From Candidatus Woesearchaeota archaeon (GTDB lineage: Archaea; Nanobdellota; Nanobdellia; Pacearchaeales; GW2011-AR1), in assembly GCA_964613185.1 (NCBI GenBank), contig CAZTIP010000001.1, positions 52,716-116,715 of the forward strand: a DNA stretch of 64,000 nt, given 5' to 3'. The position numbers and the translations under genes are program-made. Numbering within the stretch: position 1 is the stretch's first letter; each line of letters starts with the position of its first letter. Shown here piece after piece: positions 7,348 through 36,528 of the stretch. The notes under the pieces were generated by a model, which was given only the letters and a program-made list of their open reading frames with translations, made no database searches and had not been told where the DNA came from.

Positions 7348-8556
7348 TTAAAGACAAAGAGCTTCAATTAAAATATCTTCAACTTTATTAAATAAATTAT
7401 TAGGTATTGATAGTTTAATTTCTCTAGTTCTACCATGTCTTCCTTTTGAAATAACCTTTGCATTAATCAAACCCAACATATCAATTTCTGCGATAATATC
7501 TGAAATTCTCCGTTGAGTTAGCTTATCTGTTTTAGTTTGGTTACACAATATACCATAATAATTATAGACATCTCCGGTAAAAAAACTAGATTTATCTTTT
7601 TCCTCTTTAGTTAATTGTAATATTGAATAAAGAACTAATTGGAATTGTTTGGGTTCGCTTTCAACAATATCTAAAATTTTATCTCTTTCCATTTTATTAT
7701 TCGCTAAATCTATATAATCTTCTGAAACAGTTTTCTCACCATCTCTTTCTGAAAGTTCTCCTGCAATTCTAAACAAATCTAAGGCTCGCCTAGCATCTCC
7801 ATGTTCTCTAGCTGCATAAGCAGCACATTTTGCAACAACACCTTCATCAATAACACCCTCATTAAACGCTTCTTCACAACGCCCGTTCAAAATATCTTGA
7901 AGTTGAATTGCATTATAAGGTGGAAAAACAAATTCTTCTTCACCCAATGAAGATCTTACTCGAGGATCTATATTTTCTAAAAAAGTAACATCGTTAGAAA
8001 TTCCTATAATCGAAAGCTGTGCATTTTCAAGCTCTTGATTAAGACGCGTAATAGAATACAAAAAACTATCTCCCATTTTCTTAACTGCCTGGTCAACTTC
8101 ATCAAAAATAAAAACAATTAATTGTTTTTTACTATCAACTAATTCTATAAATTTAGACCAAACCTTGTCAGTAGGGAGTCCTGTTGCAGGAACACTACCA
8201 CCTAATTTTTTAATTAATGCTGCTAAAATCCTATATTCTGTATCTGCAACCTTTCTCAGTTTACAATTAATATATTCAAATCGAACTTCAACATTCAATT
8301 CATTAGCTTTTTTAATAATTTCTTCCATAACATATTGAACAGAAAGAGTCTTACCAGTTCCTGTTTTTCCATAAACAAATAAATTACTAGGTCTATCACC
8401 TCTAAGGGTTGATCCTAAAATACTTGCAATAGACTTAATTTGTTCATCACGGTGAGGAATTGAATCAGGATTATAACGGACTTGTAAAACTTCTTTATTA
8501 TTAAAAAGACTGTTATTTATTGCAGAATCAAAAATATCCCCAAGTTCAACACCCAT
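7348..8556 (-). CDS. orc1: Orc1/Cdc6 replication initiator.
   Basis: 402 aa. Walker A motif GKTGTGKT, Walker B motif IFDEVD, an AAA+ core, and a C-terminal winged helix. Confidence 0.93.
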   Translation of the reverse strand: MGVELGDIFDSAINNSLFNNKEVLQVRYNPDSIPHRDEQIKSIASILGSTLRGDRPSNLFVYGKTGTGKTLSVQYVMEEIIKKANELNVEVRFEYINCKLRKVADTEYRILAALIKKLGGSVPATGLPTDKVWSKFIELVDSKKQLIVFIFDEVDQAVKKMGDSFLYSITRLNQELENAQLSIIGISNDVTFLENIDPRVRSSLGEEEFVFPPYNAIQLQDILNGRCEEAFNEGVIDEGVVAKCAAYAAREHGDARRALDLFRIAGELSERDGEKTVSEDYIDLANNKMERDKILDIVESEPKQFQLVLYSILQLTKEEKDKSSFFTGDVYNYYGILCNQTKTDKLTQRRISDIIAEIDMLGLINAKVISKGRHGRTREIKLSIPNNLFNKVEDILIEALCL

Positions 8557-9109
8557 AAAACCACCTTTTATTTAACATAATAAAAAAAATAAACAATACT
8601 ATTTAAATTCTCATATACTTAAAAAATAATAAAATAATTTAATCCTAAAATTCTCTGACCCCTCTATTTCACTTCCAAATAAAATAAATTATAATTTAAT
8701 TTTTATTTTTAATTATATCATTATATAAATTTTTTATTTTAGTTTTTACATTTGCATTAATAATTGATTATTTTACAATTATATACTAGAATATGTATTT
8801 TAGATAATATATAATAGATAATAGATATTTTAATATAACTATTATAAACTAACTATCTTAATATATATAATATATAATATAAATACTTATAAATAAAAAT
8901 TAAAAATAAAAAACAAAAACTTAAGAAAACATTTATAAATTTTTCCAAAAGAAACCATAGGGTCACACTAAAACAAGAATTAAAAAAAAAGAAATCTAAA
9001 ACAAACAAACAAACAATAAATTAGTAAAACAATCAAACAAAACATTCACTACTTAAAATCAATAAAAATTTAAAAGAAACATTTATAAATAATTTCAATT
9101 TAAACTAGT
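8557..9109. promoter_or_regulatory. Candidate replication origin (oriC). The ~550-bp ORF-free, extremely AT-rich intergenic region immediately upstream of orc1 is a likely DNA-unwinding element. It also holds BRE/TATA-like elements.
   Basis: The position is upstream of orc1-polB-polC. It contains long A/T runs and (TA)n / TAATAGA repeats. The motif AGAAA(A)CATTTATAAAT occurs twice, at about 8925-8941 and 9079-9094. The second copy sits about 20 bp before the ATG at 9110 and is a probable BRE/TATA promoter for a leaderless mRNA. Confidence 0.45.
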
Positions 9110-9364
9110 ATGGACAAAAAACCCTTCAAAGCTCTCCTCGGAAAACAATTAGTTACAAAAGAAGGAAGAAAGTTAGGGATAGTAAAAGATATTACTTTTG
9201 AAGCAAGAACCGGAGAACTTATACAAATAATTCTTAAAGATTTAACAACATATACCTCAAATTTATCCTTAGAAAGGACAAAAGACAGGGAGGCATTAAT
9301 ACCTTATAATTCTGTAATCGCCGTTGGCGATTTCATAGTAGTTTCAGAAGAAGATTTATTATAA
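9110..9364 (+). CDS. PRC-barrel domain protein (84 aa).
   Basis: The pattern ...KEGRKLGIVKDITFEARTGELIQIIL... is typical of small archaeal PRC-barrel proteins. Confidence 0.5.
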   Translation: MDKKPFKALLGKQLVTKEGRKLGIVKDITFEARTGELIQIILKDLTTYTSNLSLERTKDREALIPYNSVIAVGDFIVVSEEDLL

Positions 9365-9419
9365 ATCTAAGATTAACAAATTACATAAATTTATAAAGCA
9401 TTTTTATTAAAATAATATC

Positions 9420-9824
9420 ATGGAAGAATTAAGACTAGCGGGATCAAAAATATTGAAGATAGAAGCAGAAAGAAATCCAGAGTTCAGTGGACAAGTGACT
9501 ATGGAAACAAATATAAAACTTCAAGAAGTGGAGTCTATAAAAGAAGTAAAAGATACTCTAAAAGCAGCATATACTTTTGAAGTAAATTATGCAGATTTAG
9601 GAAAAGTAAAAATTGAAGGACAATTATTCATAAAAACAACTTCAAAAGTTGCAAAAGAGCTTCAAAAATCAATAAAAGACAAAAAATATGACAGTCCAGA
9701 AAATATTGCAATAACTAACTTAATAATTCAAAAAGCTTCAATAAAAGCCTTTGAAATAGAAGAAGAATTAGGATTACCAATCCATATAAGACTTCCAACA
9801 GTAGAATTTAAGAAAAAAGAATAA
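9420..9824 (+). CDS. Hypothetical protein (134 aa).
   Basis: Clean ORF with no recognisable motif. Confidence 0.5.
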   Translation: MEELRLAGSKILKIEAERNPEFSGQVTMETNIKLQEVESIKEVKDTLKAAYTFEVNYADLGKVKIEGQLFIKTTSKVAKELQKSIKDKKYDSPENIAITNLIIQKASIKAFEIEEELGLPIHIRLPTVEFKKKE

Positions 9825-9907
9825 TTTTTGACAGTTTAACTAAGAAAATTTATAATAATTTTAATATACTAAACATATTTATACTAAATCATTACTAAGA
9901 TCTTAAA

Positions 9908-9988
9908 GCTCACATCGCATAATGGTATTGCACCAGGTTCGAACCCTGGGTCTTTCGAGACATCCCCGTTCGATTCGGGGTGTGAGCG
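9908..9988 (+). tRNA. tRNA-Ser (anticodon CGA), class II with a long variable arm. No CCA is encoded.
   Basis: Folded by hand. Acceptor GCTCACA/TGTGAGC with discriminator G. Anticodon stem CCAGG/CCTGG with loop TTCGAAC. Variable arm GTCTTTCGAGAC. T-arm CCCCG-TTCGATT-CGGGG. Confidence 0.85.
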
Positions 9989-10035
9989 TAATAATAAATC
10001 CAAAAACATATAAAACAATTAAACTAAAGAGTGAT

Positions 10036-10305
10036 ATGCCAAAAATATCTTCACAAAAAATAGAAAAAATTTCTGAACAAATTTTGTTACATTTATTTAA
10101 ATCATTTCCAAAACAAATTTTTACATCTGAAATAGCGAAAGAGCTTGCAAGAGATGAAGAATTTACAAAAAAATTACTTTTAGAATTAGAAAAAAAGAAA
10201 TTAATTATAAAAATTAATAAAAATTCTAAAGGATTGGAATATTCTAGAAGGTTGAGATGGAGAATTTCAAATAAAACTTATGAAATATACAAAAAACACC
10301 AATAA
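10036..10305 (+). CDS. Small winged-helix DNA-binding protein (89 aa).
   Basis: The ORF-track ORF 9922..10305 overlaps the tRNA, so the start was moved to the internal ATG at 10036 (MPKISSQK...). The pattern ...FTSEIAKELARDEEFTKKLLLELEKKKLI... resembles a MarR/PadR-type wHTH. Confidence 0.55.
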   Translation: MPKISSQKIEKISEQILLHLFKSFPKQIFTSEIAKELARDEEFTKKLLLELEKKKLIIKINKNSKGLEYSRRLRWRISNKTYEIYKKHQ

Positions 10306-10384
10306 TTAACTTTTATTTTTAAAAAATTTAAAATATATTTCTCAAAACAACTAATAATATAAAGTAAATCCCTTTTATTTAATA

Positions 10385-11005
10385 ATGGACCTAATAAAAG
10401 AGGCATTTTTAAAAATAAAAGAAGATATTTCAGAGTTAAGAGATGAAATTACAAAAATTAATAAAAAAATAAACATTTTACATTCTAAAAACAACATTCA
10501 GACAACTCCAACAGACAGACAAACACAAAATCAGACAATTCAGACACAAAATTCACAATTAAACAAAAATTTACACTTAAATCATCAATTCTCCATAGGA
10601 AATGAAGGGGTTCCAACAGACAGACAGACAAACCAACAGACAGACAAACACATAAAAAAAGACCCTATTTCTGAATTTAAACAAGCAAATGAGGTTCTAA
10701 ATTCATTAGATACTATAAAAAAAGGAATAATGTTTAAATTTAAGAGTTTAACACCCCAAGAAATGTTAGTTTTTAGCACATTATATAGTTTGGAAAGTCA
10801 AAACAACGAAACAACTTACAAAACTCTTGCAAAAGAAATAAATCTCAGTGAGTCCTCTATAAGAGATTATATTAATAAATTGATCAAAAAGGGCGTACCT
10901 ATAGAAAAAATAAGACTAAATAATAAAACTATTTTGTTAAAAATCTCTGAAGATCTAAAAACCGTGACTACTTTAGACACAATCATAAAACTACGTGATT
11001 TGTGA
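10385..11005 (+). CDS. Coiled-coil + low-complexity linker + C-terminal winged-helix DNA-binding protein. It is a paralog of 11287..11958.
   Basis: N-terminal heptad-like MDLIKEAFLKIKEDISELRDEITKINKKI. PTDRQT peptide repeats. C-terminal LTPQEMLVFSTLYSLESQNNETTYKTLAKEINLSESSIRDYINKLIKKG. Confidence 0.6.
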   Translation: MDLIKEAFLKIKEDISELRDEITKINKKINILHSKNNIQTTPTDRQTQNQTIQTQNSQLNKNLHLNHQFSIGNEGVPTDRQTNQQTDKHIKKDPISEFKQANEVLNSLDTIKKGIMFKFKSLTPQEMLVFSTLYSLESQNNETTYKTLAKEINLSESSIRDYINKLIKKGVPIEKIRLNNKTILLKISEDLKTVTTLDTIIKLRDL

Positions 11006-11082
11006 CTTCTCGGAACGTTTAATTTAAACGTTACTTTAGACACAATCATTTTATATCAAAAATTCATCAAAATCAATTTAAT

Positions 11083-11105
11083 GTTATTCGGTTAAACGAT
11101 TAACT
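11083..11105. promoter_or_regulatory. Degenerate copy of the dif-like recombination site: GTTATTCGGTTAAACGATTAACT.
   Basis: It aligns with the palindromic site at 14210-14233, including the shared flank AACTAAA..GG. One arm has diverged (GATTAAC versus GAATAAC). Confidence 0.35.
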
Positions 11106-11286
11106 AAAGGCATTAAACTTTCTCTTTTTCATTTTCCAATTTAACCCTGAATCTTACTTATTCAGGCCCGTTATTTTAGCTATTTTTTACGAAAAAACCG
11201 CCGTTTTCAAAAAACTAAACTTTTTAGGTTTTGATAAACTCACTTTTCTGAAAAAATAAGTAAAATTAAATATTAGATTTTTAATA

Positions 11287-11958
11287 TTAATCCTCACTTT
11301 TTCGGTTTTTATGGTTTTTTTCACTCGCAACTTTAACTTTAATGCTCTTTAGTATGTTTGAGCTGATTTCTTCAGGAATATAAAGCCTTTTTTTACCATT
11401 TGATTCTCTAGATTCCCTTACTAAACCCTCACTTTTCTGTTTTATAGTATTTATTTGCCCCCTCACAGTACTTTTATCCTTTCCAAGCAATGCTGCAAGA
11501 TCTTCATAACTTAACCTCATATCTGCATTTAACAATGTCCATACAATTGCCCTTTCCATTACGGTTAAATTCTCTAAAACATCTGTTTGAACGGCTGTTT
11601 GCACAGGTGTTTGGACAGCACTGGACAATGGTTGTTTATTCACTTTTGTTGAAGGTTGTTTGGACAATCCCTGTCCAAAGAAAGAAATAAAGTCTTTCAT
11701 TTCCAAAATATCATTTTGAATTGATAATAATTGGTCCTTAACTTCCAATAATTCACTTTCACGTGTGTCGTGTTTATCGTCTATATGTTTAATCCATTGA
11801 CCCACTTTTCCAAAATCCTCTTTGACCCGATTAAAGGAATCTTGCACTTCATCCTTAAGATCTTCAACTCTTTTTTTATGTCCAAATAATCCAAACATCT
11901 TACTTAAACTTAATAAAATATCTTTATAAATGTTTCGTGCTGTCCAAACAACAAACAA
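11287..11958 (-). CDS. Coiled-coil + Q/T/V-rich linker + winged-helix DNA-binding protein, possibly a Rep-like iteron-binding protein or an autoregulator.
   Basis: 223 aa. C-terminal LTVMERAIVWTLLNADMRLSYEDLAALLGKDKSTVRGQINTIKQKSEGLV aligns with the C-terminus of 10385..11005. TGTCCAAAC-type repeats lie inside the gene's 5' end and upstream of it. Confidence 0.6.
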   Translation of the reverse strand: MFVVWTARNIYKDILLSLSKMFGLFGHKKRVEDLKDEVQDSFNRVKEDFGKVGQWIKHIDDKHDTRESELLEVKDQLLSIQNDILEMKDFISFFGQGLSKQPSTKVNKQPLSSAVQTPVQTAVQTDVLENLTVMERAIVWTLLNADMRLSYEDLAALLGKDKSTVRGQINTIKQKSEGLVRESRESNGKKRLYIPEEISSNILKSIKVKVASEKNHKNRKSED

Positions 11959-12180
11959 CTAAAACAACAAAAACATCCAACAAAACAACCAAAAACTCTT
12001 GTTTAAACAAAATTCTCTCGCCATTGTCCAAACCCTAAACACTAACTTTTATAGACGATAAATTTTAAAAAACACTCTTTTAGTGTCCAAAAAACTTTAA
12101 ACACCTGTCCAAACACCCAAAGATCACTCCAAACACTTAAACACACATAATTTAAATTAAACACCTGTCCAAACAAACAA
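11600..12180. repeat. Iteron-like array of at least 7 copies of TGTCCAAAC (core CTGTCCAAACA). It includes two identical 19-mers TTAAACACCTGTCCAAACA and one inverted pair TTTGGACA-n6-TGTCCAAA.
   Basis: Read directly from the sequence. Copies sit at about 11607 (reverse), 11659/11673 (inverted pair), 11941, 12035, 12086, 12111 and 12168. Most lie in the 340 bp upstream of the minus-strand coiled-coil/wHTH gene. Confidence 0.6.
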
Positions 12181-12302
12181 CTAAAATTAATAACTTTTTC
12201 AAAAATCTTTAAAAAAACTCCTCAAATTAACAAAAAACTATCCAAAATTTGACAAAATAGGCCAAACAAAAAAGTTATAAACTAACCTCCCTAAGGGAAT
12301 TT

Positions 12303-12593
12303 ATGCAATTTCAAAAAAAAGTGGTAGATTCAATGTTAATTTCTTCAGCAACATTAATCACTTCTTTCATTCTTCCAATAATTCCATGTCGTATTGCTCC
12401 TACCGTTCCCAACCCAGATTACAAATGGTCATTATGTGATATGAATCCAGATTTAGCGTCAGAAACAAATTCAATAAAAGAATATTTAGGATATTCAACA
12501 TCCCTCACAGAATCATATTTTTTAGTACTTTTAATAACATTCATAGCAGTAATGATTTTTTTTCATTACACTACGAAAACTAAAAAAGAATAG
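12303..12593 (+). CDS. Small membrane protein (96 aa), hypothetical.
   Basis: ORF with two predicted TM segments. Confidence 0.4.
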   Translation: MQFQKKVVDSMLISSATLITSFILPIIPCRIAPTVPNPDYKWSLCDMNPDLASETNSIKEYLGYSTSLTESYFLVLLITFIAVMIFFHYTTKTKKE

Positions 12594-12603
12594 GAGGTAA
12601 AAA

Positions 12604-12792
12604 ATGGAAGAAAACTCTTTAATGGGGATATTTGCATGGGGTGTCGGAATACTAGTTTCACTTGCAGTAGGTTCTGGAATGATTGACGGGACTTTAGTAA
12701 TTCCCGGACTTAATCAAATAACAGTTGTTGCCGGATGGGCAGTTGTTGTTGGTGCAATCCTTAGCGTAATCCTAGCAATTTTCAACAAATAA
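12604..12792 (+). CDS. Small membrane protein (62 aa), hypothetical.
   Basis: The ORF is preceded by a GGAGGT Shine-Dalgarno-like motif and is Gly/Ala/Val-rich with 2 TM segments. Confidence 0.4.
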   Translation: MEENSLMGIFAWGVGILVSLAVGSGMIDGTLVIPGLNQITVVAGWAVVVGAILSVILAIFNK

Positions 12793-12796
12793 TTTT

Positions 12797-12845
12797 ACCA
12801 AAGATTTATTTTTATTTTTATTTTTATTTTTATTTTTATTTTTTC
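12797..12845. repeat. Simple tandem repeat (TTTTTA)n, about 7 units.
   Basis: Read directly from the sequence. Confidence 0.85.
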
Positions 12846-12966
12846 AAAACACTTTCAAAACACTTAGTAACTAAGGTAACCTTAGTGCACGACATCAAAC
12901 CAACAACAGAATTTGAAAACCCCTAAACACCAAAATTATTATAAACTTAGGAGTATTTAATATAAA

Positions 12967-13338
12967 ATGGCGCCATACATTTTTATTCGTCAGGAAGGTC
13001 ATAACGATAATTATCAAATCACAACCGATTTATCAAAAGCTGATGCACAAAAATTGATGCAAAAAACATTAAATTGCTTTGGCACAGAAACAGTTCAAAA
13101 TCCAACATCAAGGAATTATCCGAGGGGAGAAAACCTATTAATTGAAGAAGTGAGCCAAACAGATTATAACTCGAGGAATTATTTCACTGGAGAGGAGCAG
13201 ATAGAAGTTCAATACACTTTAAAATCTAATCGCCCACCAAACCAAATAAAATCTATAATTCAAAAAGGATTAATTTTAATCGAAACTTCAAATCAAAAAT
13301 GGCCAAGCGATCTCAAGGGAATGGAGTTACGAGAGTGA
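12967..13338 (+). CDS. Hypothetical protein (123 aa).
   Basis: Clean ORF with no motif recognised. Confidence 0.45.
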   Translation: MAPYIFIRQEGHNDNYQITTDLSKADAQKLMQKTLNCFGTETVQNPTSRNYPRGENLLIEEVSQTDYNSRNYFTGEEQIEVQYTLKSNRPPNQIKSIIQKGLILIETSNQKWPSDLKGMELRE

Positions 13339-13495
13339 TTAACAAAAGTTCGCACAATAAAAAAACAATCAAAAAACAATCAAAAAATCACAAAAGTTCG
13401 CACAATATACATTGTATGACGTTCTTATATTAAAAAACGAACGGAAATAGCCCGTTTGCACAAAGTTTTTATATGCGAACGGCTTTTTTTGGAAA

Positions 13496-13975
13496 ATGAT
13501 TAAAGAATGTGTTAATTGCAAAAACGAAAAGGAGCACCATGCAAAAGGGCTATGTTACCAATGTTACAAAAAATTAAAATGGGCCCCAAAAATTCTGAAA
13601 TGTAAAAGGTGCCAAAAGAAAAGGGCAATCCATGCAAAAAACCTCTGCGCAAGTTGTTATAATTATACATTTCATTTAGATAAAAATCGCGCGTACAATC
13701 ATCGAAAATCAAATAATGTTGATCTTAAAACTTATCGAAGGACTACAAAAGCCTGCGTAATCTGTGGATTTGACAAAATAGTCGATTTGCACCACATAGA
13801 TTCAAACAAGGAAAACAACTCTCCAAAAAATTTAATTGGATTGTGCCCCAATCACCACAGGATGATAAATAATTATAATTTTCGGCAGGGAATCTTCCAA
13901 ATTCTAAAAGAAAAAGGATTTGACTTGCCTTTGGATGAAAAACTCAATTTCCATAAGAATCAGGACTCTTTGTAG
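13496..13975 (+). CDS. HNH endonuclease with two N-terminal zinc-ribbon modules.
   Basis: HNH motif DLHHIDSNKENNSPKNLIGLCPNHHRMIN. The upstream module CxxC...HAK(G/N)LCxxCY occurs twice. A TATA-like TTTTTATAT sits about 28 bp upstream. The gene ends with TAG. Confidence 0.75.
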   Translation: MIKECVNCKNEKEHHAKGLCYQCYKKLKWAPKILKCKRCQKKRAIHAKNLCASCYNYTFHLDKNRAYNHRKSNNVDLKTYRRTTKACVICGFDKIVDLHHIDSNKENNSPKNLIGLCPNHHRMINNYNFRQGIFQILKEKGFDLPLDEKLNFHKNQDSL

Positions 13976-14209
13976 AACTATCTTTAAATCAAATTTAAGG
14001 CAATTTAAACCTCTAATTCTATTTTTTTGAACAAATAGTCATACAATTCACAAAAACTATCAAAATAAGCAATTTTATTTAAAAAATTAATTCAAAAAGT
14101 GAGAGTTAATCTTTAAAATTTTTTAAAAACAAACAGAAGAGACTAGCTTAAAACCAAATTTTGCCGACGATAAAAAATTCAAGAAAAACCTAAAAAAAAA
14201 GAAATAAAT

Positions 14210-14233
14210 AGTTATTCGTTAAACCGAATAACT
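14210..14233. promoter_or_regulatory. Perfect palindromic dif-like site AGTTATTCG-TTAAAC-CGAATAACT, 62 bp upstream of the tyrosine recombinase gene. It has two 9-bp inverted arms and a 6-bp spacer.
   Basis: Read directly from the sequence. The architecture matches Xer-type core sites: inverted arms around a 6-bp central region. Confidence 0.45.
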
Positions 14234-14295
14234 AAAAAAGGTTTTTAACCCCAAAAATTATAAACTCTTCAAGATTTCAAAGAAAGAAAAAGCAG

Positions 14296-15114
14296 GTGAT
14301 GGAACTTCAAGAATTTTTAAAAAAAATTGAAATAGAATTAAAAATATCTAAAAACTCAGATTATACCTTGAGAAATTATCTTAAATCAAATAAGGATTTT
14401 TTAGAATTTACAAAAAAATCTCCCGAAAATTCAGAACAAGAAGATGTAAAACATTTTATAGCAGAAAATCTCGCAGACAAATCTTCAAACTCTATAATCC
14501 TTTTTTTATCTGCAATAAAATATGCATATTCTTCTGTTTTACAAAAAGACATAACTTCAAATATTAAAAGACCAAGAAAAGAAAAGAGAATTCCAAAAGT
14601 TTTGTCAAAAGAGGAAATAAAAAATTTTTTAGAAGTTCTTCAAAATGAAAAATCAAAATTAATGGTAAGTTTAATTTATGCATGCGGACTTCGAGTTTCA
14701 GAATTAACAAATTTAAAAATTTCTGATTTAAATTTTCCCGAAAAAATTGGATACATTAAACAATCAAAAGGGAAAAAAGACCGATTATTTAATATTCCCA
14801 ATTTTCTATTCGAAGAATTAAAAGACTATACGGAAAAACAAAAAGGAAAAGAATTTTTATTTACTGGAAAAAATGGGAAACTTTCATCAAGAAATTTACA
14901 AAAAATAGTTTCCTCTGCATCAAAAAGGGCAGGGCTTGAAGGAGTCCATTGTCACACCCTAAGACATAGTTTCGCAACACATTTACTCGAGGCAGATACA
15001 GATATAAGGAAAATTCAAGAACTTTTAGGGCACTCCGATTTATCTACTACTCAAATTTATACTCATGTATCTGCAGAAGAATTAAAAAAAATAAAATCTC
15101 CAATAGATTTTTAA
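14296..15114 (+). CDS. Tyrosine site-specific recombinase, XerA/XerC/XerD family.
   Basis: 272 aa. Catalytic signature ...GLRVSEL... then HTLRHSFATHLL... then LLGHSDLSTTQIYTHV, giving the R, HxxR and H/Y residues. Confidence 0.9.
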   Translation: MMELQEFLKKIEIELKISKNSDYTLRNYLKSNKDFLEFTKKSPENSEQEDVKHFIAENLADKSSNSIILFLSAIKYAYSSVLQKDITSNIKRPRKEKRIPKVLSKEEIKNFLEVLQNEKSKLMVSLIYACGLRVSELTNLKISDLNFPEKIGYIKQSKGKKDRLFNIPNFLFEELKDYTEKQKGKEFLFTGKNGKLSSRNLQKIVSSASKRAGLEGVHCHTLRHSFATHLLEADTDIRKIQELLGHSDLSTTQIYTHVSAEELKKIKSPIDF

Positions 15115-15938: not shown

Positions 15939-16472
15939 ATGGTTTGTGCAAAATGCGATTATCAAGATTTAAAAGAATTAAAATTTTTTAACAAAACTCT
16001 TTGTCAAATTTGTGCAAAATTCGCTCCAAAAGAAAAAGAAAAATTAAATGAGTATCTCGATGAAAAAATAGATTGGAAACTTTTAGAAACTTTTAGGAAA
16101 AATAGTCAGGAATCTGGAAAATCAAAGAAAGAGGGAATGGGTAAAAAAGCAAGTGGAGGCGATTTGGTAACTCGTCCTCCAAAAGGTTATGAAGTCATCT
16201 CTGGAAAGTTAATTCCAAATAAGGATGCATCAAAAATACATTCACTATTCAGGACATTTATCAATAGGAACTATTCCCTAAACTCTTTAGCAAGAAATTT
16301 CACACTTTCTACAAATGGTGTAAAAAAAATTCTAACTAATCGGACCTATCTTGGAGAAATAAAATTCAATGGGAAAATCCATAAGGGAAATCATCAAAGC
16401 ATAATCTCTCCAGAAATTTTTTACGCAACTCAAAGGAAGTTGAAAGGTTATCTAAAACCAAGAAAAAAATAA
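15939..16472 (+). CDS. Serine-recombinase remnant. It has an N-terminal zinc ribbon and a large-serine-recombinase 'recombinase' domain but no resolvase catalytic domain.
   Basis: ...PPKGYEVISGKLIPNKDASKIHSLFRTFINRNYSLNSLARNFTLSTNGVKKILTNRTYLGEIKFNGKIHKGNHQSIISPEIFYATQRKL matches the recombinase-domain pattern (PxGY ... iL.N..Y.G ... H.piI..e.F..vQ). No S/R catalytic core is seen. Confidence 0.55.
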   Translation: MVCAKCDYQDLKELKFFNKTLCQICAKFAPKEKEKLNEYLDEKIDWKLLETFRKNSQESGKSKKEGMGKKASGGDLVTRPPKGYEVISGKLIPNKDASKIHSLFRTFINRNYSLNSLARNFTLSTNGVKKILTNRTYLGEIKFNGKIHKGNHQSIISPEIFYATQRKLKGYLKPRKK

Positions 16473-34984: not shown

Positions 34985-36528
34985 AAATAACTTTTAGGAT
35001 TTGGATCTTAATTATTTTTGCAAGTCTTTCATTAATTTCTATTTTTTCAATTCCTCCAATATTTTTAGAGGAAGGTTTAAAGGTTAGTCGGGTATCCCCA
35101 GATTCAAAGATTTTCTTAGAAGGGTTAAGGGAAGGAATGACAATTCAAGAAATTAACGGAATCAAAATAAATTCGCTAGAAGATTATTCAAATTCAATTG
35201 AACCATTTAGTAGTTTAAATGACAACGAAACTTTAAAATTGATTTTAAAAACAAAAGAGTTAGAAATAATAAATCTTTTTGATTCAAGAATTCTAGAAGA
35301 CATAACTGTAAATTCAATTCCGTTAACAAACATAAAAACAGGATTAGATTTGCAAGGAGGGGCAAGAGCATTCATAAAAGCAGAAATTCCATTAGACGAT
35401 TCACAATTAGATGATTTGATTGCAGTGTCTGAACAAAGGTTAAATATTTATGGACTTTCAGATGTAAAATTATTCAGAGTAAAAACATCAAGCCAAGAAA
35501 ATTTAATGGGTGTAGAAATTGCAGGCTCCTCTCCAGAAGATTTAGAAGAGTTAATTGCAAAACAAGGAAAATTTGAAGCAAAAATTGGGGAAGAAGTAGT
35601 TTTTAGGGGTGGTTCAGAAGATGTAGTTTATGTTGCAAGAACTGGTGCAGATGCGATTATTTCAGAATGTTTTGCAACACAAAATGGCGAGGCCTGCAAC
35701 TTCCAATTTGTAATTTTCTTAAGCGAGGATGCAGCAGAAAGACATGCAGAGATAACTGATAGATTATCCATAAACGGGTCATATTTAAGTGAACAATTAG
35801 ATTTTTTTATAGATGAAAAATTAACATCCTCATTAAATATTGGGGCAGGATTAAAGGGAAATGTTGCAACTCAAATCCAAATTTCAGGTTCAGGTTCTGG
35901 GGCTACACGACAAGAAGCGATTGAAGATGCAGAGCTTGAAATGAAAAGGTTACAAACAATTTTAATAACCGGCTCATTGCCTTACAAATTAGAAATTGTA
36001 AAATTAGATAAAATTTCCCCAAATCTTGGAGAAGAATTTACAAAACAACTTTTAATTGCAGGTCTTTTAGCCATTCTTTCAGTCTCAATAATTATCTTTC
36101 TAAGATATAGAAGAATAAAAATTTCTCTTGCATTAGTTACCGTTTCATTATCCGAAGTTTTGATTATTTTAGGATCAGCTTCCCTGATAGGGTGGAATTT
36201 AGATTTACCCTCTATTGCAGGAATTATTGCAGCAATAGGAACTGGAATAGATTCCCAAATAATTATATTAGACGAAGCAAGAGATAAAAATGAATCAGTA
36301 AAAAAAAGAATCAAAAAAGCACTATTTATCATAGTAACCGCATTCACAACAACCTTTATGGCATTAATACCTTTAACAGGATTTTTAGGATTTATGGGGA
36401 TTGGAGCAACATCTGCAGGACTTCTAAAAGGATTTGCAGTAACAACATTGATTGGAATAACAACAGGAGTTCTAATTTCTAGACCGGCTTTCGCAGATAT
36501 TGCGAGACAATTAGAATCTGAAGATTAA
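34981..36528 (+). CDS. secD: Protein-export membrane protein SecD.
   Basis: ...GLDLQGGARAFI... motif, a large extracytoplasmic domain, and a C-terminal TM block. The start was moved to the ATG in the ATGA overlap with secF. Confidence 0.8.
   Translation: MKITFRIWILIIFASLSLISIFSIPPIFLEEGLKVSRVSPDSKIFLEGLREGMTIQEINGIKINSLEDYSNSIEPFSSLNDNETLKLILKTKELEIINLFDSRILEDITVNSIPLTNIKTGLDLQGGARAFIKAEIPLDDSQLDDLIAVSEQRLNIYGLSDVKLFRVKTSSQENLMGVEIAGSSPEDLEELIAKQGKFEAKIGEEVVFRGGSEDVVYVARTGADAIISECFATQNGEACNFQFVIFLSEDAAERHAEITDRLSINGSYLSEQLDFFIDEKLTSSLNIGAGLKGNVATQIQISGSGSGATRQEAIEDAELEMKRLQTILITGSLPYKLEIVKLDKISPNLGEEFTKQLLIAGLLAILSVSIIIFLRYRRIKISLALVTVSLSEVLIILGSASLIGWNLDLPSIAGIIAAIGTGIDSQIIILDEARDKNESVKKRIKKALFIIVTAFTTTFMALIPLTGFLGFMGIGATSAGLLKGFAVTTLIGITTGVLISRPAFADIARQLESED

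Follow-up and report, generated by a model that had tools for sequence, protein, structure and literature searches.

A conserved decamer array upstream of and inside a winged helix-turn-helix gene near the probable replication origin of a Candidatus Woesearchaeota archaeon

The stretch analyzed here (the window) comprises 64,000 nucleotides (nt) of Candidatus Woesearchaeota archaeon (GCA_964613185.1, contig CAZTIP010000001.1, 52,716 to 116,715 of the forward strand). Its subject is an array of short repeats at a minus-strand gene here designated CC1 (11287..11898), the product of which is predicted to have an N-terminal coiled coil and a C-terminal winged helix-turn-helix (wHTH) domain; a gene of similar layout, CC2 (10385..11005, plus strand), lies close by. 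A first-pass annotation had described the array as iteron-like and proposed that it belongs to an integrated plasmid, as a possible Rep or partition module of plasmid type.

The CC1 gene and its repeat array

At 90% clustering, the CC1 family numbers over 1,500 members, mostly labelled hypothetical, in metagenome-assembled genomes of Pacearchaeota, Woesearchaeota or Nanoarchaeota, and our literature searches found no description of the family or of the motif described below. A scan with one genome per species yielded 196 relatives, from which 80 loci were kept; site comparisons cover these 80 orthologous loci plus the window (81 loci). The start at TTG 11958 given by the open reading frame (ORF) finder, and with it the gene 11287..11958 of the first-pass annotation, proved to be spurious. 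Alignments with most of the 80 loci start at the position corresponding to ATG 11898 (MFGLFGHKK...), and the 60 nt upstream of this ATG are conserved promoter DNA containing a repeat site, a transcription factor B recognition element (BRE), and a TATA box. The N-terminal extensions of some database entries ("VVQTxRNIYKE") are likewise translated promoter DNA, namely, decamer, BRE-like CGAAAC, and TATA box TTTATAAA. Since CC1 starts at ATG 11898, the intergenic region is 11899-12302.

An AlphaFold2 model of CC1, built with a 25-sequence alignment, has a helix at residues 5 to 75, disorder at residues 76 to 105 (predicted local distance difference test [pLDDT] score, <50), and a wHTH domain at residues 106 to 187 (pLDDT, ~90), which agrees with the N-terminal coiled coil, linker, and C-terminal wHTH of the first-pass annotation. 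In Foldseek comparisons with the PDB, CC1 aligned over the wHTH alone, with MarR-family, Sulfolobus Lrs14-type AbfR2, and ArsR structures (E values, ~3e-4 to 2e-3); the matches include MexR, AbfR2, MepR, and ST1710. No Pfam, NCBIfam, or PHROG model was above threshold for CC1 (the PHROGs search was empty), and no MarR, TrmB, or Lrs14 model passed, the best being Sta1 (18.7 bits versus a threshold of 80) and HTH_29 (18 bits versus 28). Among 25 CC1 family members, the commonest sub-threshold matches were to HTH_29 (15 members) and HTH_ParB (13 members; best E = 6e-4), CC1 itself scoring 16 bits against an HTH_ParB cut-off of 22.6. A sequence-profile search of the PDB with CC1 returned coiled-coil noise and a non-significant match to Noc (E = 0.31). 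The recognition helix of CC1, KSTIRGQINTIKQK, is invariant, as are the TGT and ACA ends of the repeat site.

The repeat TGTCCAAAC occurs six times in the 64 kb, all within 566 bp (11609-12174), while dinucleotide-preserving shuffles gave an expectation of 0.37 copies and a maximum of 2. With up to one mismatch, there are 28 matches in the window, 11 of them between 11536 and 12174, which bears out the earlier count of at least seven copies. The unit of the array is a 10-bp pseudo-palindrome, TGTYYRRACA (the decamer), which has palindromic ends, a perfect form TGTTTAAACA, and an extended 14-bp consensus GCTGTTTAAACAGC; the last is also the consensus of a position weight matrix (PWM) trained on 132 non-coding orthologous sites. 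Within the window the motif is concentrated at this locus and not dispersed: six of the seven matches to TGTYYRRACA lie inside 11608-12175 (0.9 expected), and, of the 11 PWM hits with scores above 11, all but a lone outlier at 35426 lie inside 11584-12175. About half of the copies are upstream of CC1 (11941-12175), where they span ~230 bp, and about half are intragenic (11584-11681, 225 to 320 bp inside CC1, plus 11879); the first-pass annotation had recognized the upstream array but assigned it most of the copies, in 340 bp. The two identical 19-mers TTAAACACCTGTCCAAACA that it noted do exist, 60 bp apart, but at 12097-12115 and 12157-12175 rather than at 12104 and 12160, and the inverted pair in the linker-coding part (TTTGGACA at 11659-11666 and TGTCCAAA at 11672-11679) is present with a spacer of 5 nt, not 6. 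The features of the locus, including a second palindrome (element B) described below, are as follows.

11287..11898, minus strand: CC1, 203 amino acids; true start at ATG 11898, from orthologue alignment and starts
11584..11681: intragenic array in the CC1 linker-coding region, encoding xVQT three times in one frame and LSKQ in another
11584-11593: intragenic decamer, weak (PWM score, 11.7)
11596-11605: intragenic decamer (PWM score, 14.6)
11608-11617: intragenic decamer (PWM score, 21.7)
11657-11666: intragenic decamer (PWM score, 16.5)
11672-11681: intragenic decamer, weak (PWM score, 6.1)
11609 and 11658, minus strand: exact copies of TGTCCAAAC
11773..11784, minus strand: intragenic copy of element B, encoding I-D-D-K; variant ATAGACGATAAA
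11923..11940, minus strand: CC1 promoter
11923-11930, minus strand: CC1 TATA box TTTATAAA, ending 24 nt before the ATG; kept in orthologues
11931-11937, minus strand: BRE-like CGAAACA of CC1, read from the sequence; kept in orthologues
11941..12175: upstream array of decamers and phased GGTGTTT-type half-sites
11941-11950, 12106-12115, and 12166-12175: upstream decamers
12000-12009: upstream perfect-palindrome decamer TGTTTAAACA
12025-12034 and 12084-12093: upstream decamers, weak
11941, 12025, 12106, and 12166, plus strand: exact copies of TGTCCAAAC
12048..12062: intergenic copy of element B (variant ATAGACGATAAA at 12051-12062, plus strand)

Conservation of the sites and codon usage in the CC1 linker

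Across the 81 loci, 132 strict decamers lie at positions -300 to -1 and 210 at +200 to +399 from the CC1 start codon, compared with ~0.08 per kb elsewhere (779 kb of flanks, within 6 kb on either side of CC1). At least one upstream decamer is present in 66 of the 81 loci and at least one intragenic decamer in 77 of the 81 (mean, 2.75), and the non-coding copies persist down to 45% protein identity. No decamers occur in CC2, in the small wHTH gene that precedes it, or in the DNA upstream of either. The membrane-protein genes divergent from CC1 have a common spacer with it (~330 bp in the orthologous loci) and, in the window, no site near their TATA box.

The TATA box of CC1 is preceded in 27 of 77 loci by a decamer in either orientation, which starts at a distance of 20 ± 1 bp from the box and abuts the BRE. 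These TATA-proximal decamers take the forms TGTCCAAACA (10 cases, CCAA center), TGTTTGGACA (8 cases, TTGG), and TGTTTAAACA (5 cases, TTAA); in the window, 10 bp separate the proximal decamer from the TATA box, and in seven more distant loci a decamer lies between the TATA box and the ATG. That the position is fixed while the orientation flips is what a symmetric dimer bound to double-stranded DNA would predict, and it argues against a signal at the RNA level. The rest of the spacer contains ~4.8 STGTTT half-sites per locus, with an orientation bias of 386:132 (3:1) and spacing peaks at 10, 12, 22, 32, 42, and 50 bp. Because these half-sites are helically phased direct repeats, "iteron-like" is a fair anatomical label, and the specific association of such an array with a coiled-coil/wHTH gene was correctly perceived in the first-pass annotation.

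Decamers were also seen at a few other genes. In distant genomes, good decamers lie directly upstream of xerA, the gene of a tyrosine recombinase (L055, -2672; L056, -2615; L057, -3229 and -3216), and in L040 (-2356 to -2313) they lie directly upstream of a recombinase-domain zinc-ribbon gene, a homologue of window 15939..16472. The decamer-binding factor may thus control a small regulon of nearby genes, some of them for chromosome resolution.

The linker of CC1 is otherwise variable and disordered, yet in the protein alignment it contains invariant SKQ and VQTxVQTxVQT segments. Both arise from the decamer, which is read in two frames, as nnT-GTY-CAA-ACA (xVQT) and as xTG-TCC/TTT-AAA-CAR ([L/V/M/P][S/F]KQ). 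With the remainder of the same CC1-family genes as background, the Val of VQT is encoded by GTC or GTT in 226 of 235 cases and never by GTA (background: GTC plus GTT, 50%; GTA, 31%; GTC alone, 6%), the Thr by ACA in 180 of 217 cases (background, 41%), and the Gln by CAA in 232 of 234 (background, 66%). The codon before each Val specifies A, G, P, D, S, or T, yet its third base is T in 221 of 243 cases, against an expectation of 119, and in the SKQ frame, Ser79 is TCC in 41 of 46 cases (89%; background, 2%). CAA is preferred in the VQT frame because a perfect palindrome there would create a TAA stop codon. In some orthologues L-S is replaced by V-F (GTG TTT), a non-conservative swap that restores the perfect palindrome TGTTTAAACA.

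Over the full length of the gene, synonymous positions are most strongly constrained inside the elements; at 45% to 78% protein identity, synonymous sites elsewhere are not so constrained. A protein-structural constraint on the linker is unlikely, since this region is predicted to be disordered. At the level of sequence comparison, the codon pattern shows that the intragenic sites are kept by selection on DNA, which would dictate the "invariant" residues of the linker. This makes CC1 an unusually clear instance of dual coding, one array of sites being preserved in both frames, within the coding sequence of the protein presumed to bind it, among species with as little as 45% protein identity. 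A conserved stretch of disordered protein would ordinarily be read as constraint at the protein level; the CC1 linker shows that DNA can be the source of such conservation.

Element B is an 11-bp palindrome, TATCG(A/T)CGATA (TATCGACGATA), usually followed by AA(A), and it recurs in three places at the locus. The copy upstream of CC1 has a position of about -150 to -163 in the majority of close orthologues, while some distant orthologues have it at -46. An intragenic copy at +112 encodes H-L-D-D-K-H in most orthologues, with enrichment of rare codons (CTC, 50% versus 4%; GAC, 81% versus 22%). The third place is ~300 bp past the CC1 stop codon, in the convergent spacer between CC1 and CC2 (about +900 in the orthologous loci). 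The window variant, the 12-mer ATAGACGATAAA, occurs exactly twice in the 64 kb, at 11773-11784 and 12051-12062. Since element B is a second palindrome at the locus, at least two factors probably act there.

A putative autoregulatory operator array

From the observed sites and their positions, conservation, and codon-level selection, we infer, with a confidence somewhat better than even, that the array is an operator set for a dimeric winged-helix protein, most likely the CC1 product, and that CC1 would be autoregulated through an array partly embedded in its own gene. The autoregulated arrangement named in the first-pass annotation, apart from the partition-operon label, would thus be the best reading. 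CC1 would dimerize through its 70-residue N-terminal helix, and the flexible 30-residue linker would let the two wHTH domains sit on palindromic half-sites and on adjacent phased half-sites. One site would abut the BRE/TATA of the CC1 promoter, the others filling ~230 bp upstream, with the second cluster 225 to 320 bp inside the gene. The sites, occupied cooperatively, could then feed back on CC1 transcription, through looping from one cluster to the other (~300 to 500 bp) and/or as a roadblock, negative autoregulation being judged the most likely net effect. The sites upstream of xerA and of one other gene in some genomes also fit a transcription factor.

Several points weigh against this proposal. 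Almost every genome has genes for CC2 and the small wHTH protein beside CC1, and either of these proteins could bind the sites. There is essentially no other target in the 64-kb window, which is unusual for a protein that is 65% to 70% identical across many species. Conservation is higher for the intragenic cluster than for the upstream one (77 versus 66 of the 81 loci), which ordinary autoregulation does not obviously need. The binomial p-values of the codon biases (1e-27 to 1e-64) overstate independence, the species being related. Finally, archaeal activators typically bind immediately upstream of the BRE (Ptr2 and TrmBL1), and the sign of CC1 regulation is uncertain for this reason.

Among the closest parallels are the MarR/Lrs14-type autoregulators (ST1710/BldR and AbfR/Lrs14), with which CC1 has in common a winged helix and, as proposed here, a dimer on a palindromic operator at its own promoter. 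However, CC1 is below every family threshold, its dimerization would use a separate N-terminal helix and a 30-residue disordered linker, and it has a second operator cluster in its own coding sequence, kept by selection at the DNA level. In regulators of the TrmB/TrmBL1 type, the position of the site relative to BRE/TATA sets activation or repression. The CC1 site position likewise varies relative to these elements, being upstream in close orthologues and downstream in distant ones. In TrmB the wHTH domain is N-terminal and the coiled coil and sugar-binding domain come after it, whereas in CC1 the order is reversed, there is no ligand domain, and the TrmB Pfam model is unmatched. On the features compared, CC1 is a member of none of the known families considered in this text.

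We rate CC1 as a candidate for an uncharacterized, clade-wide regulator family with an operator array that would be embedded in, and shape, its linker-coding sequence. The 203-amino-acid protein and the 14-bp GCTGTTTAAACAGC make a testable protein-DNA pair in uncultivated DPANN archaea, beside the genes for Orc1, PolD, XerA, and a PRC-barrel protein; almost nothing is known of regulation and chromosome organization in such archaea.

Chromosomal neighborhood and alternative explanations

The conserved gene order around CC1 is PolD DP2, DP1, Orc1/Cdc6, PRC-barrel protein, 134-amino-acid protein, small wHTH, CC2, CC1, a membrane-protein pair, HNH, and tyrosine recombinase. The neighbor proteins of the window were compared with the 80 loci by tblastn, the counts being bounded by the 6-kb flanks and by contig ends. 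On one side, Orc1/Cdc6 was found in 29 loci, the PRC-barrel protein in 45, the 134-amino-acid protein in 46, the small wHTH in 72, and CC2 in 77; on the other side, the small membrane proteins were found in at least 50 and at least 42 loci, HNH in 32, and the tyrosine recombinase in 50. The identity of DP1 and DP2 was confirmed by Pfam, and the tyrosine recombinase of the window is XerA by an NCBIfam equivalog match (230 bits versus a cut-off of 220).

The spacer between orc1 and the PRC-barrel gene (8557-9109) contains two inverted origin recognition box (ORB)-like boxes (one of them TTTCCAAAAGAAACCATAGGGTCACAC) that flank ~260 bp of very A+T-rich DNA. Within the window such boxes occur only there (8653-8679 and 8940-8968), they differ from the array motif TGTYYRRACA, and most of the 29 orthologous orc1/PRC spacers also contain the box TTTCCAnnAGAAACnATAGGGTCAC. 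This spacer is probably the chromosomal oriC, of canonical archaeal type and separate from the array; the CC1 locus lies 2.3 to 3.2 kb away. The neighboring features are as follows.

8653-8679, minus strand: ORB-like box
8940-8968, plus strand: ORB-like box TTTTTCCAAAAGAAACCATAGGGTCACAC
10036..10305, plus strand: small wHTH gene, upstream of CC2; found in 72 of 80 loci
10385..11005, plus strand: CC2 (coiled coil, Q/T-rich linker, HTH_36-type wHTH), convergent with CC1
12303-12593, plus strand: small membrane-protein gene 1, divergent from CC1; conserved at about -330
12604-12792, plus strand: small membrane-protein gene 2; conserved at about -640

CC2 matches Pfam HTH_36 (E = 2.2e-8) and, weakly, DnaD_N and phage replication-initiator PHROGs (E values of 4e-5 or weaker). 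BLASTP did not detect a relationship between CC1 and CC2 (E = 0.09). However, a profile-profile comparison (hhalign) linked them over the linker end and the wHTH (96.7% probability, E = 3.6e-10), and on this basis CC2 is, as the first-pass annotation had it, a paralogue of CC1, albeit a distant one by sequence.

Among the alternatives, we consider first an origin-proximal chromosome-organizing or centromere-like site, an unlikely explanation but one with several points in its favor. CC1 would coat both clusters, oligomerize by its coiled coil, and mark or anchor the origin for segregation, autoregulation being a by-product; anchoring might, speculatively, take place at the membrane through the conserved hydrophobic-basic N terminus MF(G/W)(L/F)F..KK. 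The locus is close to the ORB-flanked A+T-rich origin in a conserved neighborhood that includes XerA and a PRC-barrel protein, the palindromic sites are confined to one locus in 64 kb, and the half-sites are helically phased with one shared orientation (3:1 bias). In known systems, parS lies inside spo0J (parB), and RacA combines a coiled coil with an HTH. The best-conserved cluster of CC1 is the intragenic one, recalling parS inside spo0J, and like ParB-parS, Noc-NBS, and RacA-ram, the locus has palindromic sites clustered near oriC, including in the gene of the presumed binder, together with a coiled coil plus HTH and weak similarity to HTH_ParB (sub-threshold in 13 of 25 members) and to Noc.

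However, these ParB-like matches are all below threshold, and the best fold matches are to MarR-type regulators. CC1 has no ParB/Spo0J N-terminal domain; no ParA-type Walker motif was found in the window, where the only P-loop ORFs are Orc1 and an ABC-type ATPase at ~30.1 kb, and no ParA/SegA-type neighbor is conserved across the 80 loci. Unlike ParB, Noc, and RacA, CC1 would act at a single locus of ~600 bp, and the precise promoter position of one site and the sites upstream of other genes are traits of a transcription factor. In addition, the "MFG" codons resemble half-sites (ATGTTTGG), and the N-terminal conservation may therefore be partly a matter of DNA. A more specific version, in which the two clusters form a centromere or origin-anchoring locus and CC1 is a novel archaeal counterpart of ParB, Noc, or RacA with its gene doubling as a loading site, appears slightly more doubtful again. 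If it were true, DNA loading sites would dictate the sequence of the disordered CC1 linker.

It is also improbable that the decamers are operators for CC2 or the small wHTH protein, with CC1 as the regulated target. Such an arrangement is consistent with the co-occurrence of these two genes with CC1 (77 of 80 and 72 of 80 loci) and with element B upstream of, inside, and downstream of CC1, which points to at least two factors. Yet the decamers are missing from both of these genes and their upstream DNA, in every genome the sites cluster on CC1, and the invariance of the CC1 recognition helix is matched by that of the site's TGT/ACA ends.

We regard as very improbable the proposal that nothing binds the sites, VQT and SKQ being a low-complexity peptide kept at the protein level and the upstream similarity a relic of an old partial duplication. 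The CC1 linker is indeed Q/T-rich and repetitive like that of CC2, the repeat of which (CCAACAGACAGACAAAC) is confined to its own gene. This proposal is at odds with the third base fixed before variable amino acids, the complete avoidance of GTA, and the retention of one decamer in both frames with non-conservative exchanges (LS and VF). It is equally at odds with upstream copies at a fixed distance from the TATA box in flipping orientation and with non-coding copies kept to 45% identity.

The last alternative, also very improbable, is the iteron replicon or partition module of an integrated plasmid or a second initiator-origin pair of the lambda O/WhiP type. Iteron plasmids with an autoregulated Rep (pSC101 RepA, F RepE, and R6K pi) have phased direct repeats and an inverted repeat at the promoter of a winged-helix binder. 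The CC1 locus has the same arrangement, and CC2 has its weak matches to HTH_36, DnaD_N, and replication-initiator PHROGs. In bacteriophage lambda, the iteron-bearing part of gene O encodes an inter-domain linker. The dyad-symmetric O-binding iterons of ori-lambda lie in the middle of gene O (PMC5043065), and the CC1 array similarly lies inside the coding sequence of its presumed binder. However, lambda O is a phage replication initiator with an N-terminal DNA-binding domain and iterons adjoining an A+T-rich unwinding region, whereas CC1 is chromosomal, has a C-terminal wHTH and no homology to O (no match to Phage_rep_O), and is accompanied by a separate Orc1/ORB origin 3 kb away. The array has neither ORB elements nor a long A+T-rich unwinding element, the DNA-unwinding element and ORB-like boxes lying at 8653-8968.

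Unlike the Rep proteins of iteron plasmids, CC1 matched no Rep family in Pfam, NCBIfam, or PHROGs, nor any ParB family above threshold, and the fold comparison pointed to MarR/Lrs14/ArsR-type wHTH proteins, with no Rep, TrmB, or ParB model above threshold. No CC1 relatives were found in IMG/VR (2.9 million viral contigs) or PLSDB (72,556 plasmids), and the array shows no G+C anomaly within the window. The same chromosomal gene order in dozens of species-level genomes, beside Orc1/Cdc6, PolD, and the ORB-flanked origin, likewise speaks against a plasmid module. An integrated element between a tRNA-Ser and the integrase was discarded as well, on the conserved synteny and the match of that integrase to the chromosomal XerA equivalog. 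Because of the chromosomal synteny and the lack of mobile relatives, of a ParA motif, and of a G+C anomaly, the plasmid replicon or partition reading of the first-pass annotation is rejected. Iterons, a winged-helix gene, an integrase, and a tRNA can mimic an integrated plasmid, and here they belong to a core chromosomal neighborhood at the origin of Pacearchaeota/Woesearchaeota.

Some further observations concern CC2 and its surroundings. The CC2 linker repeat CCAACAGACAGACAAAC (peptide GVPTDRQT...) is at 10507-10662; GGGGTTCCAACAGACA is present in ~57 of 78 CC2 orthologues, and (CAGA)n expands in a microsatellite-like manner in some of them (~10 units in L004). Intergenic copies of CCAACAGACAGACAAAC were sought and none were found, and the idea of an embedded operator in CC2 was dropped for this reason. 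An exact 18-nt direct repeat, TACTTTAGACACAATCAT, at 10969-10986 (the last CC2 codons) and 11032-11049 (27 nt past the stop codon) resembles a short duplication of the CC2 3' end. The convergent spacer 11006-11286 is, at 281 bp, unusually long for a compact genome and has a terminator-like hairpin at 11146-11166; orthologous CC1/CC2 spacers contain TATCGTCGRTAAA, so a small unannotated gene or RNA is possible there. The listed start of the small wHTH gene, 9922, is spurious, since it overlaps a tRNA-Ser (CGA) at 9908-9988. The probable start is ATG 10036, and the gene may share a transcript with the tRNA-Ser and CC2.

An Rfam scan of 8400-13000 (E up to 1) returned the tRNA-Ser alone, and no known RNA explains the strand-asymmetric spacer. 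A scan for bacterial promoters and terminators was at chance level, its models being bacterial and inapplicable to archaea. The strong promoter consensus GAAA(A)CATTTATAAA occurs twice around the origin, at 8925-8945 and 9076-9090. The copy at 9076-9090 belongs to the PRC-barrel gene; that at 8925-8945 overlaps the ORB-like box and is followed by ~130 bp free of ORFs, and an origin-associated transcript is possible. The PRC-barrel family is implicated in archaeal cell division. The region 7348-15114, with replication functions (PolD, Orc1, and oriC), the PRC-barrel gene, three wHTH genes, two tiny membrane proteins, HNH, and XerA, may represent a cell-cycle gene cluster of this clade.

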